Positions 1 to 62,400 of a stretch of DNA of 64,000 nucleotides are shown here, one piece after another. Position 1 is the first letter of the stretch; each line of letters opens with the position of its first letter. Below the pieces are notes generated by a model. The model was not told the origin of the DNA. It searched no databases and saw only the letters and a list, made by a program, of their open reading frames with translations. A program made the translations under genes and the position numbers. This DNA is from Octopus vulgaris. Taxonomy: Eukaryota. The stretch spans positions 8,246,001 through 8,310,000 of the forward strand of contig OX597824.1 in assembly GCA_951406725.2 (NCBI GenBank). Direction: 5' to 3'.

Positions 1-1502
1 CAGGCATAAATCTTAAAGACGCTACACGTGCCCTACTAGATGTGAAATCCCAGTGAGGCATAAATGCATCATTTTAGGGTCCATTAAATAATATTTGATT
101 GGTTGTTGTCCATTAAATTCTGGAGAAAAGAGATCATCTCTGCTGTGTGCTGTCCACCACTGGTAGAAATAGTGTTAAAACAAAGAACTTTGAAATGAGA
201 AGGTACTGGTGAAAAAAAAACAAGATTAGATCCCTTACTTGAGGTGCAGAAATGGGTTAGTGACACAAGAGCATCCAAAAGTGAAACAAGGACTCAATAA
301 AAAGTTCATGCCACCCACACTAGAATGAAAATAAATGGAAATTGAATGAACAAATGAATTCCAAAAGCTAATATTCATTTTTTGCAGCAAATACAGAAGA
401 CAATTCCAGACATGGTTCCATCATTTTCCTGACTTCAAAAGCAAAGCCATGGCCTCCAATGTACTGGCCAGTTTTGATAATGAAAGAATTGCTCACCATA
501 AAATGTACAAGACTATGCAGAGACCGGCATAAGAAAACAGAAATTTTTTTAGAGAATAAATAATTCAGAGATGGCATCCAAGACAGGAAACATTACCATT
601 TTAGTAACAATGGAACCAACAACCAACAGAGATAACACACTCGCATGTGGTTATGTCTGAATCCTGTCTATAAATAAAATATGGTATTCAAACATCTAAA
701 CATACCATCTTGATTGATTTTCAAAAGATTACAACAAGCAAACTTAAATTTTCTTCTTTCATTTTTTTTTGTTTTCCTACCTGTCTGATTAACTTTGTCT
801 AAATTCTATTTTGTATGTCCAAATTTCAGCTTACATTTTCAAAAGAAACGAATTGCTTCAAATCTGACAGTATGTGTGTTTGTGTGCATACATGCGCACA
901 CCAAACTAATTTTTCTTTTTATCTTCCTTGTCAGGAGTGATGGCCATATCTGTCACTTTCCACAGGGCCTGAGAGATTGGTGGGAAGGAGAGAGAGAGAG
1001 AGGGAAAGCTACCTTCAAGCCAGAAACCTGACACCAAATGCCTGCAACTTGGTGAACTCTGCTAAAGACACCCGAGGTGCCAGGTGATGGTGGTGTTGAA
1101 TCAGCCACTGGATGAGGCCAACCACCCAAGTAGGCCAGAGTGAGATTTGAACTCAGAATGCAAACAGTGGAAATACAACAAAGTATCCAGTTCAATATGT
1201 TTACAGTTCCACCAACCCATTAACTGAAGATTGGTATTTATTTTTCTTGAGCTTAAAAGGATGAAAGCAAAATTCACCTCTGTGAGATTTGCCAAACATT
1301 AGAACTAATACCAAGAGGCACTCTATCCAACATTCTGCCGCTTCACTGTCTTAAATCCTTTGGTAACAACCCATCAGAAAGCACACCTATTTTTATGATA
1401 TACAGCATTGCTTTTAAGGTCGTCTAAATTAGAACCTGCCAAAATAATTTTGGTAATTTCACTTTGAAGCAAGCTTAATGACAAAATTATTTTACTAAGT
1501 TC

Positions 1503-1909
1503 ATTATAGACAGAGAACACCAATGGAAAATACAGAAACTAAAAGAAGCAGCACATATGCTAGGACACAACAACCTCCTAAGCAGACCGAAAGCAGATAT
1601 GAGTAGCATATAGGAACCGGTATTAGGGAAGGATAGGAAAATATTAGATTTAAAAGCCCTAAAAATTCACTCCATAATTGCCAAGATTCTGAGTTTGATT
1701 CCAGGCAGTGACCTGAATAATAATATCGAAATATACCTTAGGAATGAGAACCCAGGTTTGAAATTTCCCCAACACACCTGATGAAGGCTGGAGGGTATAT
1801 CAGCCGAAACATTGAGTTAACAACGTACAAGATGAGGACAAATATCCGTCAAATGTAAATAATATAAATAATAATGTACATAATTCCTCATCTCTTAAAT
1901 ATAGAACTG
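1503..1909 (+). mobile_element. Penelope-like retroelement 3' fragment (GIY-YIG C-terminus + terminal repeat with hammerhead)
   Basis: Frame from 1503 reads IIDREHQWKIQKLKEAAHMLGHNNLLSRPKADMSSI*EPVL, matching the PLE endonuclease tail pattern (D.E..W..R..KEA...W.P.L, TGG>TAG at 1611). Followed by a B-box remnant and a hammerhead core. Approximate TSD tattttactaagttcatta / tattttcctaaattcatta inside a TTAA-type MITE. Confidence 0.75.
1773..1818 (+). ncRNA. minimal type-I hammerhead ribozyme motif (copy 1, degenerate)
   Basis: CTGATGA-A-GGCTG[gagggtatat]CAGCC-GAAACATT-gagtt. Perfect 5-bp stem II; stem III palindrome decayed (ACGT>ACAT). Confidence 0.65.
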
Positions 1910-1989
1910 TATTTTCCTAAATTCATTATATCTAAAATTAATTGAAACACAGGCAATGTAGTTTAACAGAAGTATGATAACAAAACAGT

Positions 1990-2212
1990 TAAAACATTAG
2001 CATTTAATCCAGTCATATCCAACCCAGATAATCTACCTGTTTTATGTTCAAACTGACAAGATCCAGCCTCTTACACCTACCCTACAATGTCATGCTAGAT
2101 ATATACAAAGAAGCCACTGAAATCTTGAAGCTACACAATGTCTGATTACTTCAAAACAATGTGAATAAATACGCAATATATTTGGCAAAGAAGTCTGAAA
2201 GCTAAAGGGCTG
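1990..2212 (+). mobile_element. TTAA-type MITE family F, degraded
   Basis: Collinear with 52889-53350 (atctacctgttttatgttcaaactg...cacctaccctacaatg...gctaaaggg). Confidence 0.6.
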
Positions 2213-3480
2213 AACTTGCTTTTTATTGCCGACATAAATAAGTGAGTACATGTAACTGAAATGGATAAGCTTCAGATCACAGAATATTTGATCAGAGCAT
2301 AAAGTACCTTGTCAAAACACACAAGCAAAAATGTCTAAATTTACAGCCCCAGCCAACCAGGTATAAAATCAAAAGGAAAAAGTAATACGTTCTGTAAAAG
2401 AGAAAAGGTGGAAAATGCAGTGTTAGGCTCTGTAATTACTCTTCTACATGAAATACCACAAAGCTAATGGTGAAGAAGAAGAAGAAGAAGAAGAAAAGGA
2501 TAAAAAACATGAGAATGTCGATAGGAGAATGAGTCTTTAGTACTTTGCTAAATAAAATGTTTTGTTACTATTTTCAACTTTACTTCAAAGTATTTCGGTC
2601 GATTTTATATTTCAACTGAAACCAGGTTGTAAAATAAGTACACGTAGCTTACGTGTAATACACATTACACCTATTTCTCTAACAAGGGGAGGGGAGAAAG
2701 AAAAAGGGGGTACATATCACACACACACACATATATATATACATATATACACATATGTACCTGAGTTACTGAGACGTGTATATTTATAAATGTGGCTTCG
2801 ATATTCATTTAAGAACTACAGCAGCTCTGAACAGCACAGCTGCTGATTCTACAAATGTCAAATACACCTGCTCTCCTAATCTATGATGGTGCAGCTAAGA
2901 CACACACACACAAAAAAAGTAAACAAATAAATAAATAAAAGTGTCCACCAGACAGGTAAATCTTTACACAAGCAATACAAAACACTATGCTATCCTCCTA
3001 CACCTCTCTCTCTCTCTCGCTCTCGCTTCTACCATCACAACACTGTTTGCTTCTATCAGCTTACTAACTATACACTACACTAAATATACACCACATATGT
3101 CTCTCACATCTCTTGACTACCATATATACTTACTTCCTTTACAATCCGTTTATCCACCTCAATCAGAAACTAACAAAATTTCAACAAATAACCTCCCTGC
3201 TGCCCCCATTTCTCAAACATGTCATCATTACTTTCAATGCAGACATCTAGAACGTTTACTTAAAGCTTTAAACAGTAGCCGTCTCCCGTACATAAAAATA
3301 TACCTTCACATTTTGGGAATTTCTGAAAATTTAGAGGAAACGAAATCTTCTTCCCTTTAATCTGTAACACACACGCAAACTGAATTGTAACATTCATTTT
3401 GTGATTGCATCTATTTTTATCAAAACGCTAACCCCTTTAGTTACCAACTTAAGTGAGACAGCCCCTGGTTCTAAAATACA

Positions 3481-3854
3481 TATTTCTTTACTACCCACAA
3501 GGGGCTACACACAGAGGGGACAAACAAGGACAGACAAACGGATTAAGTCAATTACATCGACTCCAGAGCGTAACTGGTACTTAATTTATCGACCCCGAAA
3601 GGCTGAAAGGCAAAGTCCACCTCGGCGGAATTTGAACTCAGAACGTAGCGGCAGACGAAATACCTATTTCTTTACTACCCACAAGGGGCTAAACACAGAG
3701 GAGACAAACAAGGACAAACAGATTAAGTCGATTACATTGACCCCTGTGCGCAACTGGTACTTATTTAATCGACCCCAAAAGGATGAAAGGCAAAGTCGAA
3801 ATACCGCTAAGCATTTCGCCTGCTGTGCCAATGTTTCTGCCAGCTCTCTGCCTT
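3481..3854 (-). mobile_element. tRNA-SINE family B, dimer within one TSD
   Basis: Two tandem bodies. TSD ccctggttctaaaataca at 3463-3480 and 3855-3872. Confidence 0.85.
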
Positions 3855-3951
3855 CCCTGGTTCTAAAATACAAACTTCCTTTTTTAAAGTGATTTAATTT
3901 AGAACCTTCCATTATAATTTCAAGTTTGTTTGGAACACCATCTTAATAATA

Positions 3952-4332
3952 CTTTCACTTGTTTCAGTCATTTGAGTGAGGCCATGCTAGAGCACCGCCT
4001 TTACTCGAGCAACTCGACCCTGGGACTTATTCTTTTGTAAGCCTAGTACTTATTCTATCGGTCTCTTTAGCCGAACCGCTAAGTAACGGGGACATAAACA
4101 CACCAGCATCAGTTGTCAAGCAATGCTAGGGGGACAAACACAGACACACAAACACATATATATACATATATATAACATGGGCTTCTTTCAGTTTCCGTCT
4201 ACCAAATCCACTCACAAGGTATTGGTTGGCCCGGGGCTATAGCAGAAGACACTTGCCCAAGATGCCACGCAGTGGGACTGAACCCGGAACCATGTGGTTG
4301 GTTAGCAAGCTACTTACCACACAGCCACTCCT
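3952..4332 (-). mobile_element. tRNA-SINE family A, full length
   Basis: Minus strand head aggagtggctgtgtggtaag...gggttcagtccc (A/B boxes), internal (AT/GT)n, tail ...tgactgaaacaagt. Confidence 0.9.
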
Positions 4333-4879
4333 GGATAAAATTGTTTTACTAAATACTGTGTTATTTTCAAAATCAATTAAAACATTAGCAGCGTATTTTA
4401 AAAAGGAAATATGGCAACAAAAGGGTTAAAAACCAATTATTTGAAACGTTTGTTATGTCGTAGATATGCACAACTTATTTTCAATTACGAAGACTCGAAA
4501 ATCAATTGACTGGAAATATCCTATGGAATTAAACAATCAAAACGAAAAAGTAAAATCGAAAAATAAAATGCTGTGGCCTAGTTGCTGAGTGTGTATCCAA
4601 AACAAGTTGGTAAGCATTAAATTGAGAAAGAAATTCTTTTGTCTGTCAATTATCATAACCAAGGGTCTGTCTATGGTAAAATGTTATGTTAGCAATCAAA
4701 CGCAAAATGCAGCAGTCAGCCTACCACATGCATCTGTACATGTCAGTGTTCGACAGTCGGAGAGAAGGGCAACCGAGCAGACATTGCTGTCTGTTTTACT
4801 TATCGTCTTGACAGTAAATACCCCTTAAACTTGAGCACAAAAACATACTTTACGAAGGCGGTGGAACACGAAAAGGAAA

Positions 4880-4995
4880 CAACATGGGAGGGGTAAGTTT
4901 TTTAACAAATAACAAATGTATTTAGTTTGATGCTCAAAGAGATAGATAAGAGGCTTGACGTTTCAGACATCTGTCATTCATCAGGAAAAAGAAAA
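4880..4995 (-). mobile_element. PLE terminal-repeat remnant with hammerhead-like core
   Basis: Minus strand CTGATGA-A-tGACA-ga-TGTCt-GAAACGTC (4957-4984). Stem I degenerate. Confidence 0.5.
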
Positions 4996-5829
4996 AAGGG
5001 GGGAATTGTACTCCAGAAAAAATAAAATTAAGCCAATTTAACCCCTTGATACCATAGTTTCATAGTTTGTCCCTTGATTTTATGGTACCAACTTCCTGTT
5101 TTAAAATTATCTAAAACGCAAAAATAAAAACCCACATGTGACAAGAAACCTATTCCCCGCCTTAAAAATCAATTCACATCTTTCTCGGTAGGCCAGCTGA
5201 ATACTTTAGTTTTATGATACATAACTGACACCTATATCTATATATCCCAAGCTAAACATACACAATAGAATCAATCTACAAATCTGATGGCTGAGCCCCA
5301 GCATGGGCACAACCAACAGGCTAGAACAAGCAAAGGGGTATATATAAACCAACAAGTTATTAAATGTCACTACATGAACATTAAGAAGGTAAAAAAAAAA
5401 AAGGAGCCTATTTCCTCAAAGGTAATCATTTCGAAAAATTTTTAACCCTGACCTTCCCCCTGCCACCATTCTAATTTCCAGTTTCCAAAGCTATTTAAAC
5501 ATGTCATAAATCAGACGTTTGTTCAGCTGTCAATGTTTCAAGGTATTATATCAATAACATATCGATAAAACTATATCACACAATTTGCCCTCCACCCCAA
5601 CTACCCCCTCCGATATTAAACACTCGAAATTTCCTGATACGATCGACAAAAACATTTCGCTCGCATTTTAAATAAACCTTGACCGAAATATTGAACTTGA
5701 ACAATGGAAAGGCAGCAAGATCTAAAATGAAACCGACACAGTGCCACAGACATCCTTTCTGTTCTGAAATAATATATACAAATTTATTTGATAAATAAAA
5801 TCAATTATACGTATGAAACCAATCGTGTT

Positions 5830-6240
5830 GCGCAGGAGTGGCTGTGTGGTAAGTAGTTTGCTAACCAACCGCATGGTTCCGGGTTCAGTCCCACTGCGTG
5901 GCATCTTGGACAAGTGTCTTCTGCTATAGCCCCGGGCCGACCAATGCCTTGTGAGTGGATTTGGTAGACGGAAACTGAAAGAAGCCTGTCGTATATATGT
6001 GTATGTGTTTGTGTGTATGTGTTTGTGTGTCTGTGTTTGTCCCCCTAGCATTGCTTGACAACTGATGCTGGCGTGTTTACGTCCCCATCACTTAGCGGTT
6101 CGGCAAAAGAGACCGATAGAATAAGTAGTGGGCTTACAAAGAATAAGTCCCGGGGTCGATTTGCTCGACTAAAGGCGGTGCTCCAGCATGGCTGCAGTCA
6201 AATGACTGAAACAAGTAAAAGAGTAAAAGAGAGTAAAGAG
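5830..6240 (+). mobile_element. tRNA-SINE family A, full length
   Basis: Same head and body as 3952-4332, with a (gagtaaaa)n tail. Confidence 0.9.
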
Positions 6241-7172
6241 TGTATGAATGAGGTCATATTAAAACTGAATAACTAATCTCTCACATTCTATTCTCTCTCA
6301 TTTGTAGCTTGTATTTTCATATACATTCATGGCTATACAGTAACACCTGTGACTACACGTATATTAATTCCAAGCAGTGTATTCACACACAAGTGTAGGA
6401 TCGAAATTTGCTTAGAGGGTACTAAACCAGGTCAAACCCAACATGGTTAAAGTGCTTTCATTCTCTCCTGCAGAAAAATTTTAGGGGTTGCACTTGGACA
6501 AAAGTGCACCAGGTGGATTGTGCTCAAAATTCAAAAGGGACAGCCTCGCACCCCACTGCCATACACACACACACAGTGTCATATTAAGTCTGTCTGAAAA
6601 TTGTATTGAGGGCCCGTGTGTCTGTGGAATACTCAGCCACTTAAATGGGCAGGTAATTCAATTGATTAAACAACTGAATTCTTACCAATCAACAGAGAGA
6701 GCTACCATTTACAAGAGGAAGGACTTCTCAGTTTTTGTGCTCCCTACTTCATATACACAAGCATTAACACAGCCAGAGAAAACCTGGAAGCAGGATCAGA
6801 TGTCATGTGCAAGAACATGGTTTGAAGATTTGGCTGGTAGTTCCAACAAGTCACAAAACTTTCCAAAGATGGTTCATCGACATTTAACACGTTACGGTCC
6901 AATCTCTTCTTGTCTCTGGCCCTTTCTCTCTTTTACTGAAATGAGCTTTTCTTAGGGAATCGTATGAAGGTCAAATTATAAATTAGAAAGAGAAAAGAAA
7001 AAAAAAAAAAAAGAAAATTTCCCCAAATTTATGCTATTTTCAAAATTATCATTTTTATATACTAAGATGGACTCTGTAAGATATTCTTCAATTTTATTAT
7101 CAGATGCCCTTTCATAACAAATTCTGAACTATTTTTCAAGAACATGAAGTCAGGTATCATTCATTTGTTTAA

Positions 7173-7390
7173 CCCGTTAAGTCCCACTGTCCTATAAATA
7201 GGACACTAAATGAGAACATTAAATAAGCCACATCACATTGTCTCAGTGTCCTATTTATAGGACACCGAGTATTTCCATTTCTACTTGAAGGAGTTTTAAT
7301 AATTATTTTTAAAATTTTAACCTATTTTCAATCATCTGCAAAAATTTAAAAGTAATATTCAGAAATCTAAGTACTCTGGGACTTAATGGG
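7173..7390. mobile_element. piggyBac-type MITE with TTAA TSD
   Basis: TTAA|cccgttaagtccca ... tgggacttaatggg|TTAA. Two internal near-palindromes gtcctataaataggac and gtcctatttataggac. Confidence 0.8.
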
Positions 7391-7841
7391 TTAATGTTTA
7401 TTTTTCAGAGTAAGCCTGGCATAAATAGGAACTGATATGAGGTTAAATTTTATTACTGGATGTTCTTCCTGATGCCAATCCTTCACCCGTTTTTCAATTA
7501 AGGGTTCATTTTTTTTTTTTTTTGCAGAGTTATTGTCATAATGTTGGCCAGGACCATAACCATCAATAGAGCCTCACAGAAGCAAAATAAAATAATGCCT
7601 CGATATACAATGCAATTTGTTCCCAGAGATCACATTATATGAGTCTTCTTCAGGACAGTTAGACGCTGTCCAGAAGAAGACTCATACAATCAGGTTTGGC
7701 AGAGGGAAAACAATGATGATGATGATGATGGGAATTAAACTTATTAAGCTCTGATTAAAAATTTTAAAAAAGTTAAAGCAACAAAGAAATCATATTAGAG
7801 TTAATTTGCTTTCAAAATTTAAAAACTTAAATACTTTCCAT

Positions 7842-8070
7842 GGGCATATGGCCTAGTGGTTAACAGTGCAGGCTACTAACCCCAAGATTCCGAGTTCGAT
7901 TCCAGGCAGTGACATGAATAATAACAACATTGTAAAATATCTTAGGAATGAGAACCCAGATTTGAAATTTCCCCAAGGCACCTGATGAAGTCTGGAGGGT
8001 ATATCAGCCGAAACGTTGTGTTAAGAACAAACAAGATGAGGACAAATATCCATCAAATGTAAATAATGTA
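7842..8070 (+). mobile_element. tRNA-headed SINE-like unit homologous to the PLE terminal region, containing a hammerhead
   Basis: A box TGGCCTAGTGG and B box GAGTTCGATTCC, then sequence collinear with 1681-1880. Possible TSD tttcca (7835-7840 / 8072-8077). Confidence 0.75.
7977..8022 (+). ncRNA. minimal type-I hammerhead ribozyme motif (copy 2)
   Basis: ggcac-CTGATGA-A-gtctg[loop]cagcc-GAAACGTT-gtgtt. Stem I ggcac/gtgtt, stem II with one mismatch, palindromic ACGT stem III, GUU cleavage triplet. Confidence 0.7.
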
Positions 8071-8646
8071 ATTTCCAGTTAGTTTTGCAAGGAGTTCTAC
8101 ATGAAACTTTCCAGACTGCCTAATTTCTGTCCCCACCGAAGAAAAGCAACAAATCTTATACAGAGTTATTTACCTTGGGCTTCTTGAAAACTGCAACAAG
8201 AGAGATTATTATGTCAGCCATCCCAGATAGCCATGGTTATTTTTATCACCAGTAATCATGAGTATCATCAAAACAAAAGCATTTTCTATTCCAGTATTCA
8301 ACAATTAGATAAATGCACAAAATTGCAGAAAAAAAATACTTTATTTCTATTACTGTTGTGTAGTTAAGAAATTTGCTTCCCCAACCATGCGGTCTTAGGT
8401 TCAGTCCCACTGCGTGGCACCTTGCGCCAACCAAAACCTTGAGAATGGATCTGGTAGATGGAGGCTGAAAGAAGCCCATCATATATGTGTGTGTGTATGT
8501 GTGTGTATATATATATAATAACAAAGGGTAAAATTAATTAATTAAGAAGTAATCAGTAATTTCACCAAGTAGAATTCGGCATGAAAAAGACCATTTCATG
8601 ATAAGCTTAAGTAATACTAATTATAAAGTATATATATATTTATATA

Positions 8647-8868: not shown

Positions 8869-9042
8869 CATGCTACAGAATTAAATTTCAATTTTGAAAT
8901 ATTTCTAAAAAAAAATATTAGAATTGTATAAAATTTCTCAAGAAAATCGAATATTTCAGTGACCCATGCAAGTGTCATCTATCATAGCTTCCAGCTGAAC
9001 AATGCTCTGTGAGTGAAGTTGGATGTGTGTGCATACATACCT

Positions 9043-9822
9043 ATTTCTATACTACCCACAAGGGGCTAAACACAGAGAGGACAAACAAGGACAGACAAAC
9101 GGATTAAGTCAATTATATTGACCCCAGTGCATAACTGGTACTTATTTAATCGACCCCGAAAGGATGAAAGGCAAAGTCGACCTCGGCGGAATTTGAACTC
9201 AGAATGTAGCGGCAGACGAAATACCTGTTTCTTTACTACCCACAAGGGGCTAAACACAGAGAGGACAAACAAGGACAAACGGATTAAGTCGATTATATTG
9301 ACCCCAGTGCATAACTGGTACTTATTTAATCGACCCCGAAAGGATGAAAGGCAAAGTCAACCTCGGCGGAATTTGAACTCAGAATGTAGCGGCAGATGAA
9401 ATACCTGTTTCTTTACTACCCACAAGGGGCTAAACACAGAGAGGACAAACAAGGACAGACAAACGGATTAAGTCGATTATATTGACCCCAGTGCATAACT
9501 GGTACTTATTTAATCGACCCCGAAAGGATGAAAGGCAAAGTCGACCTCGGCGGAATTTGAACTCAGAATGTAGCGGCAGACGAAATACCTGTTTCTTTAC
9601 TACCCACAAGGGGCTAAACACAGAGAGGACAAACAAGGACAGACAAACGGATTAAGTCGATTATATTGACCCCAGTGCATAACTGGTACTTATTTAATCG
9701 ACCCCGAAAGGATGAAAGGCAAAGTCAACCTCGGCGGAATTTGAACACAGAACATAACGGCAGACAAAATACCGCTAAGCATTTCGCCCGGCGTGCTAAC
9801 ATTTCTGCCAGCTCGCCGCCTT
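9043..9822 (-). mobile_element. tRNA-SINE family B, four-unit concatemer within one TSD
   Basis: Four ~182-186-nt bodies with a single 5' head (ggcggcgagctggcagaa). TSD tgtgtgcatacatacct at 9026-9042 and 9823-9839. Confidence 0.9.
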
Positions 9823-60412: not shown

Positions 60413-61068
60413 GTTAGTTAGTTAGTTAGTTAATTTTTTGGCTCAAAATGCAAAAAGCAAGGCCATGTAGGGGGACATGGAGTTATGTACAGGGTGGTGT
60501 TCATGTAAAGAGTTCAGGCCACTTGTGGTCAAGGAGAGACTTTGAACTGAGCGGTCGTCGGCATCTTCACCATTTCGTCTGGCAGCTTATTCCACAGATC
60601 TGCAACCCAGACGGAGAAAGCCCCTCTCCTTCGATTGAGACGAAATCGTCGCAGATAGAGCTTTTCGGAGTGACCCCGCAGCTGACACTCTGGAGCAGGA
60701 GTGAAGAACATTTTCCGCTTATGATGTTGTGAGCAAGAATGAGATCACCACGGCGTCGTCGTTTTTCTAGAGAATAAAGGTCGAGCGTCTTCAGCCTTTC
60801 TTCATAAGACAAATTCTTGAGACCAAGAACCATGCGGGTAGCCAGCTTCTGGACTCTTTCGAGATGATGTATGTCTTTGAGGAGATAAGGAGAAGAGGCT
60901 TGTATCCCGTACTCCAATATGGGTCTCACCAGCGTGACATAGAGCGGTAGGAATATGGCTGCTGTGAGCATTCTGAATGACCGTCGAATCAAGAACAGAA
61001 CTCCACGTGCTTTGTTGGCAGCACGGACGCACTGGGCCAAAGGCGAAAAGGAGGAATCCACCAAGATC
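60413..61068 (-). mobile_element. CR1-clade LINE 3' fragment inserted in an older SINE
   Basis: LYVTLVRPILEYG...SPYLLKDIHHLERVQKLATR...LSYEERLKTLDLYSLEKRRRRGDLI, then after a frameshift LRGHSEKL...AFS.WV..LWNKLP, and an (AACT)n tail. Host SINE halves at about 60235-60412 and 61069-61112. Confidence 0.92.
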
Positions 61069-62400
61069 ATACAATCATAAGTGCAACATCCTAACCACTA
61101 AGCCATCTGCCTGCCATCTTAAATAAGAAAATTACTATTTTGAAATCTCACAACGAGATCAGTGACTAGTTGTCACTTTGAAAACTATATATTTCGAACG
61201 GGAATTTGGCAGCGCCACCTCTAGCTGAGCAATTATTCTGTGCTGATGAAGGGAAATAACCTGGAAATCATGATACACAGATATTGATTTGAGCTGAGTT
61301 GGGGTGCTAGATTCCCTTGTTTGAAAATATAAGGACATAGATTGAGTCATATAGCCAGCTGGAGACGATGTCTCCTGGGGCTAAATTACAGCAACATTCG
61401 TCCTAAACCAGGACTGCCATGTTATGTTGGCAAACAATCTTCACTACAAAAAGAGTTAAAATCAGCTGAGAAATTTCAAGTGATTAATGTCATGCTGTGA
61501 TTGAAATGGAAAGTAATTTTCTAAGTGAATGCATTTTAATAATTATTTCTAATTTAGACAAAAGATGACGAGCTGGCATAGTCATTAGTATGTTGGATAA
61601 ACATGCTTGGCAGTATTTCTTTGGTCTCTTTATGTTCTGAGTTCAAATTCTGCCACAGTTAGCTTTGCTTTTCCTCCATTTGGGGGTCAATAAAATAAAG
61701 TACCAGTCAAGTACTGAGGTTGATGTATTTGACTTGCCCTGTCTCTTGAAAATGGTTCACCTGGAACCCTGCAACTGGCTGATGTCCCATTCAAAGAAAT
61801 GGTGTGATCTCAGTCATTTATATGCTATAGAAACCAGGTAACTGATCTAGAGAGACTTAGGGCTCAAATAAGAAAAATTAAAACAAGAAAAGCAGACTGG
61901 AGTTAGTGGAGCAACAGCACACAGGTAGACGAAAAATGTCGCTGGAGAGGTCACAGGTGTGTGTCGAAAGATTTCCGGACAATGGACATAAGTTAGAATA
62001 AGAACAGTAATAAATAAGATTGAACAGAATGGAAGAGATCAATGAATGTATAACCTTATAGCTATGACCATCCTATTTTTATACTTCTCATTTTTCAGAC
62101 ACAAGGTACCTAATACTAAATTATTCAAGCACAGGGTATGGCTTGAGGGAGATTTAGTTACTGATTGAAGCAGACCAGCTCCCTCATTGGTTCATTCTAA
62201 GCCTAAGGGTCAGTTAATGGTGTGAACTGATCACCGTGTAAAAGCTAAACAAAGGAAGGTTGCAAGCCAATTAGGGAATCCCTGTGTGGTTGTTTGACCT
62301 GCTAAAAAACCCAGCTAAATTTCCTTCAAATCACACCTCCCAATTCAAAAGGAACATGTCAATTAATGTGGTTCTGTTTATATTGCATATCTTCTTCTTC

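Follow-up and report, generated by a model that had tools for sequence, protein, structure and literature searches.

The question raised by this locus is how a tRNA-like, putative RNA polymerase III (Pol III) promoter and a hammerhead ribozyme come to share one short repeat, and what kind of element that repeat belongs to. The window, a 64,000-nucleotide stretch of Octopus vulgaris DNA (GCA_951406725.2, contig OX597824.1, positions 8,246,001–8,310,000, forward strand), carries two copies, A (1503–1910) and B (7842–8071). An earlier note, made from the letters of the window, took copy A for the terminal region of a Penelope-like element (PLE) that had captured a tRNA-derived promoter, and copy B for an independent short interspersed element (SINE) moved by the PLE enzyme. 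The downstream sequence which it saw in both is indeed common to them (88% identity across 189 nt, E 3.5e-66) and, judged by sequence, both copies belong to one PLE family encoding a reverse transcriptase (RT) and a GIY-YIG endonuclease (EN). The capture proposed in the note agrees with our finding of a tRNA-like head with A and B boxes after the PLE open reading frame (ORF); the independent SINE that was to result from it does not, and the short units are better described as SINE-like solo copies of the element's own pseudo-long terminal repeat (pLTR).

Element coordinates are counted from the first G of the tRNA-like head (+1, window position 7842), with negative numbers lying 5′ of it. Copies A and B are separate insertions, 5.9 kb apart, and the intervening 1911–7830 is unrelated DNA with other repeats. 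The target-site duplication (TSD) of copy A (1489–1508 and 1911–1930) places the start of that element near 1506–1509. The features of the two copies are as follows:

1489..1508, + strand: left TSD of copy A (18/20 identical to 1911–1930)
1506..1655, + strand: 5′-truncated ORF end of copy A (C-terminus of the GIY-YIG domain)
1667..1682, + strand: post-ORF spacer of copy A (in the family, the head's first bases in inverted form, imperfectly repeated)
1682/1683, + strand: site of a 45-nt deletion in copy A (head −3..+42, A box included)
1692..1702, + strand: B box of copy A, which has lost its A box (joint position weight matrix (PWM) score −4.3)
1744..1746, + strand: ATG in copy A that opens the PLE ORF in tandem copies
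1773..1818, + strand: minimal type I hammerhead of copy A, damaged (C15.2-G16.2 pair, helix I)
1878..1910, + strand: PLE 'tail' of copy A, about 33 nt
1911..1930, + strand: right TSD of copy A
7832..7840, + strand: candidate left TSD of copy B (6 bp exact, 8/9 with 8069–8077; overlaps element bases 7838–7841)
7838..7916, + strand: tRNA-like head of copy B (tRNA-Arg the top match among 35 genomic tRNA sequences)
7849..7859, + strand: A box of copy B, by PWM
7893..7903, + strand: B box of copy B, by PWM
7917..7932, + strand: (AAT/AAC)n tract of copy B, of very variable length between copies
7948..8070, + strand: opening 41 codons of the PLE ORF, with its ATG, in copy B (one stop, at a CpG-type site; overlaps the hammerhead)
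7977..8022, + strand: minimal type I hammerhead of copy B (core 7982–7988 and 8010–8013; GUU cleavage triplet 8015–8017; helix II mismatch at 7991)
8060..8071, + strand: copy B stops here at its 3′ side, at the first RT start site, tail absent (first flanking TTTT at 8083–8086)

The 36-residue peptide upstream in copy A, which the note had called GIY-YIG-like and of PLE origin, is identical at 32 of 36 positions to the C-terminus of a longer family copy; in copy A itself the ORF remnant has a premature stop (1611–1613) and the position of the family's stop codon (1653–1655) is mutated. The longer copy contains the region of the RT YVDD motif and a GIY-YIG-type motif (YSIPC.C..YKGET), and aligns with P0001, a full-length RT-EN homolog (48%, E 3e-70). 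Pfam RVT_1 matches the RT (E 1.5e-7); the Pfam search gave no match for the 36-residue peptide or the EN piece, and the EN was recognised through its motif and the homolog alignment. A single ORF encoding an RT, with a GIY-YIG endonuclease at its C-terminus, is the layout of endonuclease-bearing (EN+) PLEs. Identity to an Anolis homolog is 36% over 361 residues, and no linker Zn finger of the Neptune/Nematis type was seen in the translated ORF or the homolog alignments. All 30 PLE loci retrieved with a distant query are of the same family as copies A and B, which may perhaps be the dominant Penelope-type element of this genome. The exact 33-nt ribozyme core occurs 2166 times in the genome and is exact in two of 30 copies chosen by ORF; such counts give a family size of roughly 30,000 arms, with a wide margin.

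The pLTR of this element runs, in order, from the ORF stop through about 30 nt, the tRNA-like head with its A and B boxes, an (AAT)n tract, an ATG and the minimal hammerhead to the tail. That the head is embedded after the ORF, a check suggested in the note, is supported by 30 loci picked by their ORF end, where it lies some 30 nt past the stop codon, and by retention of both boxes in 17 of the 27 ORF-anchored copies that could be scored. The boxes were scored with a PWM built from 33 genomic tRNAs. Copy B, with both boxes intact and 44 nt apart as the note had it, scores 19.7, and the family majority 21.0, compared with a maximum of 17.4 and a 95th percentile of 3.7 for 200 shuffles. The B box of copy A (joint score −4.3) is likewise present as reported, but the truncation that made it look like a remnant is a private 45-nt deletion, and the family keeps the whole head. 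Scores of at least 12 were reached by 13 of 30 loci of the family, and none (0/38) of the related PLEs on metagenome contigs with a 3′ region scored above 7.2. ARAGORN found no tRNA within the window, giving spurious folds only at a lowered threshold, and Rfam gave neither a hammerhead nor a tRNA hit at copy A, copy B or the unit.

Among 35 genomic tRNA sequences of about eight isotypes, the head is closest to tRNA-Arg (69% over 52 nt). Other SINE heads match at 65–69%, so the donor may have been a tRNA or a SINE; the octopus SINEs OR1 and OR2 are reportedly derived from tRNA-Arg. The spacer at −19..−3 (window 1667–1682), as an imperfect inverted copy of the head start, may be a fold-back left over from the capture of the head. 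The unit's (AAT)n tract is also where at least three other repeat families end (L142, L200, L267, L293 and L303; L150, L172, L052 and L056; L166, L175 and L187); these are probably AAT-tailed retroelements targeting the tract, or chimeric heads.

The repeat also lies at the other end of the element. In tandem copies, translation from the ATG at +113 reads across the hammerhead and the tail and stays in frame into the ORF. L112, L098, L034, L250 and L267, together with most of the 30 junction loci, show this in-frame joining of the repeat to the body start, with partial tandem copies that precede the body making up the pLTR, as in PLEs. The N-terminal peptide derived from L112 is identical at 44 of 88 positions to the N-terminus of P0001 (E 2e-22). 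Since the repeat runs in frame into the body, the head sits in the 5′ untranslated region (UTR) of the full-length element. The note missed this second role of the unit, which supplies the full-length element with both its 5′ UTR and its N-terminal coding region; new here, the head occupies the place predicted for that element's promoter.

Where copies begin bears on whether the head is used as one. For a census we took the first 93 of 100 listed exact ribozyme-core matches (of the 2166), all on one contig (C1), which gave 89 loci. L136 was dropped as a duplicate, five fold-back loci were set to −6 and three were reassigned across insertions by hand; hits from one further similarity search were excluded, since its query favours full-length copies. 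Measured on the longer arm, 46 of the 89 loci end at −19..+13, 15 enter the ORF, eight end at +16..+48 and 20 at or after the microsatellite, so that the end rate per nucleotide is 0.043 at the head, 0.0015 in the ORF and 0.0028 downstream (a 15–28-fold excess). The enrichment at the tRNA head anticipated in the note is thus a sharp pile-up with its edge at −7, rather than random truncation. Copy B does not start exactly at the head, as had been stated, because 7838–7841 still match family positions −4..−1. Its 6-bp TSD is exact but weak taken alone, with 17% of random flank pairings reaching 6 bp and an overlap with element bases; the TSD of copy A is the better of the two.

Other samples give the same edge. 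Nineteen of 20 head-anchored loci (out of 3216 head-motif matches) end at −20..+15, six of them at −7, and one enters the ORF. Loose contig ends lie at −7 in all four other sequencing runs, from three organisms (17, 19, 178 and 87 contigs), although contigs cannot show start, strand or level. Among 30 body-start loci, two have an upstream repeat whose start lies at −8 or −2, and no same-strand repeat reaches further 5′. The edge at −7 lies 14 nt before the intact A box, and 14 nt upstream of the A box is the usual distance for a Pol III start. The head thus probably, though by no means surely, acts as an internal Pol III promoter that would set the RNA 5′ end near −7.

A pile-up of this kind could also arise from a capped RNA with its start site inside the pLTR. 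Known PLE start sites lie there (PMC8557442; PMC6765202; these and the papers cited below are used through the available portions of their text), solo pLTRs of any PLE would pile up at such a site, and a capped RNA suits translation. The position of the boundary relative to an intact A box, and the lack of Pol III terminators in the entire sense strand, make this explanation an unlikely one.

We consider it equally improbable that the head is a passive relic, with only long Pol II transcripts serving as templates and the RT stalling or folding back at a hairpin that covers the start of the head. In its favour, the first bases of the head recur, imperfectly and inverted, in the 25 nt that precede it, which form the strongest local hairpin; many junctions are perfect fold-backs centred on the head start; and small numbers of ends collect at other short palindromes too (five at +184, for example). 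However, copies made by stalling would be expected to stop at the stem's 3′ foot (+15..+20), whereas copies without a fold-back end at −8..+2, past the loop, and almost none of them between −9 and −40. Moreover, the missing TTTT and the canonical spacing of the boxes would be left unexplained.

The terminator evidence concerns the whole element. The majority sense strand (2621 nt, depth at least 23) contains no TTTT and has 30 runs of four or more A. Composition predicts 4.7 occurrences of TTTT, and their absence has P 0.009 by base shuffle, 0.065 by a Markov model, 0.033 by synonymous-codon shuffle and about 0.004 by the rate of 28 T-matched relatives. In 76 related PLE ORFs the observed/expected ratio for TTTT is 1.55, and each of the 48 loci longer than 1.5 kb has at least one such run; for 22 decayed copies of the family itself the ratio is 0.27. 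Pol III transcription of the whole 2.6-kb coding element is possible, though less probable than that of the repeat. The fuller proposal, which we regard as possible and still doubtful, is of an autonomous coding retrotransposon switched to Pol III, in which the captured head would drive a pLTR-ORF-pLTR RNA, selection would have purged TTTT, and solo repeats would issue from the same promoter.

Several points weigh against a Pol III origin. The TTTT test is post hoc, its controls are single copies from other organisms and not mutually independent, and G-runs are equally absent from the sense strand (P 0.26). The family boxes are weaker than those of real tRNAs (21 vs a median of 38 bits), and 20 of the 89 loci start at or after the microsatellite. 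The head start is covered by the unit's most stable local hairpin (−13.4 kcal/mol, P 0.013). Part of the pile-up can therefore come from stalling or fold-back, and the palindrome by itself is enough to bring fold-back copies into line at −7. The signs of Pol III (5′-end pile-up, boxes, no TTTT) are all signs in sequence. Pol III transcripts are also uncapped, which fits poorly with translation of an 820-codon ORF.

The note's proposal that the PLE enzyme moves the short unit is supported by the marks left at insertions. An inverted arm lies 5′ of the copy in 59 of the 89 loci; among 52 resolvable pairs the tail is at exactly one end in 48, at both in none and at neither in four; and a TSD of at least 8 bp (8–15 bp) flanks 30 of 70 composite insertions, as opposed to 1.6% of shuffled pairings. 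An adjacent inverted 5′-truncated copy and a 30–40-nt tail at one end only are marks described for PLEs (PMC8557442). One locus (L181) has an inverted pair flanked on both sides by identical inverted flank, forming a larger palindrome. For Anolis Poseidon, in vitro work describes two internal RT start sites, an overlap of ORF and ribozyme, and uncleaved RNA as the main substrate (PMC11167929). On this model, the PLE protein would bind uncleaved RNA at the start of the ORF, and reverse transcription would begin at an internal site, either +235–245 (giving no tail) or +275–276 (giving a tail). The RT would then run off the RNA 5′ end at the head, and the cDNA would often fold back on a small palindrome to give the inverted arm. 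A solo repeat may serve as template, and so may the 5′ repeat of an element that is either full-length or has an internal deletion.

The ribozyme is a minimal type I motif, with the core, an extra base after G8-A9, a G10.1-C11.1 pair and a palindromic 15.2-16.2; the same features are listed for the minimal hammerheads of PLEs (PMC4209133), where the motif likewise lies within the pLTR. Core and helices are intact in 41 of 124 family copies, and helices I and II form in the minimum free energy fold of the unit. The hammerhead reported in both copies in the note can be recognised by inspection, with its core and the GUU at 8015–8017, but each is structurally damaged and without an Rfam hit. Ends gather weakly at the cleavage site (five at +184, which is also a palindrome). 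The monomeric ribozyme likely stays uncut, and with uncleaved RNA as template the head and tail would travel together. A regular-expression search for ribozyme-coded N-termini in 120 PLE homologs gave nine matches, three of them convincing. The peptide patterns at the N-termini of P0001, P0023 and P0103 suggest a hammerhead within the N-terminal coding sequence of other PLEs.

Whether the short unit has become a SINE family in its own right was judged by comparing 72 ORF-linked with 76 head-start copies, samples that were picked by similarity and whose divergences (4–10%) are not ages. The two sets share one majority sequence with no diagnostic substitution, differing by deletions or at CpG sites. 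The unit has the size (about 240–280 nt, where the limit is 700 bp), non-autonomous nature, tRNA-derived head and A/B boxes of a SINE as defined by SINEBase (PMC3531059). Its partner, however, is by sequence identity and insertion marks a PLE in place of a LINE, and nothing in the 72 and 76 copies separates its lineage from that of the autonomous element. Because they show no diagnostic difference from ORF-linked copies, we read the short units as solo pLTRs of the PLE lineage and not as a separate SINE family. Internal RT initiation of the kind described for Anolis (PMC11167929) would let a full-length RNA yield such solo repeats. Short deleted dimers, seen in 19 of 30 junction loci, are one possible source; full-length 5′ repeats and solo repeats are others.

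A tRNA-derived SINE family that is independent, has master copies of its own and borrows the PLE 3′ end and enzyme, as claimed in the note, would account for the excess of head-start over ORF-linked copies (about 3:1), and these are short, with boxes and TSDs, each intact solo copy having its own promoter. Set against this, the only differing site (+217, a CpG) follows the query's own base, and the autonomous element itself carries the head. We therefore regard such a family as the least probable of the explanations considered. The minimal template of the Anolis element needs the first 172 nt of the ORF (PMC11167929), whereas a solo repeat here holds at most 164.

Many short elements consist of a repeat, 50–390 nt of body start and a second repeat (L277–L305, e.g. 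L287, L293 and L294), with two hammerheads 300–500 nt apart; they are candidates for dimer cleavage, circles, or true non-autonomous masters. L032:977–2247 resembles a retrozyme tandem, with six units joined head to tail, each of about 190 nt and running from the microsatellite to the tail. Elsewhere in the window are further abundant SINE-like families (3476–3845, 9037–9820, 4034–4333 and 5832–6240), of which 9037–9820 is a tandem of four units of 180–184 nt, and on the minus strand at 60780–61130 about 60 nt separate a SINE-like head from a LINE-like coding fragment downstream of it.

In the literature searched, with most subscription papers and the repeat databases outside its range, no paper on a tRNA-derived head in a PLE was found, and the available text of two octopus repeat papers (PMC13282606 with its supplement, and PMC8967140) makes no mention of ribozymes or of this arrangement. 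Octopus tRNA-derived SINEs are known from Ohshima and Okada 1994 (cited in PMC4758252, PMC3531059 and PMC10886601), with OR2 listed as a CORE-SINE, and the short unit may already be catalogued among them, perhaps as one of the three families OK, OR1 and OR2. Annotation probably assigns some of these units to 'SINE' and others to 'Penelope'. SINEs are by definition the partners of LINEs, a pairing that would be widened by a short repeat with a tRNA head that a Penelope enzyme moves. As PLE transcription is known for very few elements, the sharp predicted start, boxes and terminator-free body make the present case testable; if the coding RNA does come from Pol III, nature would here provide an example of an uncapped Pol III transcript being translated, and one element would be both the 'LINE' and its own 'SINE'.

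Penelope/Poseidon PLEs such as Anolis PAc (PMC11167929; PMC8557442; PMC4209133) resemble the octopus element in their single ORF with RT and C-terminal GIY-YIG, their partial-tandem pLTR, the inverted 5′ arm, the 30–40-nt tail at one end and the minimal hammerhead over the ORF start. The octopus PLE differs in its tRNA-like A/B head within the pLTR and its TTTT-free sense strand, the promoters described for the others, in the text available, not being tRNA-derived.

As to whether the arrangement was already known, which the note had asked, schistosome SMalpha is a described case of a short repeat that joins a Pol III promoter to a hammerhead (PMC6765202; PMC4918200; PMC8490949), but not within a PLE. 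In SMalpha the Pol III promoter is tRNA-derived and the hammerhead behind it is of type I, an order matched here by predicted Pol III boxes upstream of the hammerhead; the likeness is one of layout. SMalpha is described as tandem and as having a complete tRNA and a canonical ribozyme that is active, and an autonomous partner with the same unit is not mentioned in the available text; the octopus unit, by contrast, serves an autonomous PLE as pLTR and ORF start, occurs mostly as monomers or inverted pairs, and has a minimal ribozyme. The octopus family offers a concrete route to SMalpha-like repeats that combine Pol III and ribozyme.

Animal non-LTR retrozymes (PMC7229834; bioRxiv 10.64898/2026.07.22.740005) are likewise non-autonomous, hammerhead-bearing derivatives of PLE pLTRs. 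They differ as head-to-tail tandems that give circular RNA, and the available preprint text contains no tRNA head or Pol III promoter; the octopus copies are mostly monomers or inverted pairs, with occasional tandems (L032, L294). Finally, the TRIMp3 elements Cassandra, Helenus and Ajax (PMC10886601) carry a Pol III promoter derived from a small RNA in their terminal repeat, perhaps by SINE insertion, but these are non-autonomous LTR elements, whereas the host here is an autonomous PLE.

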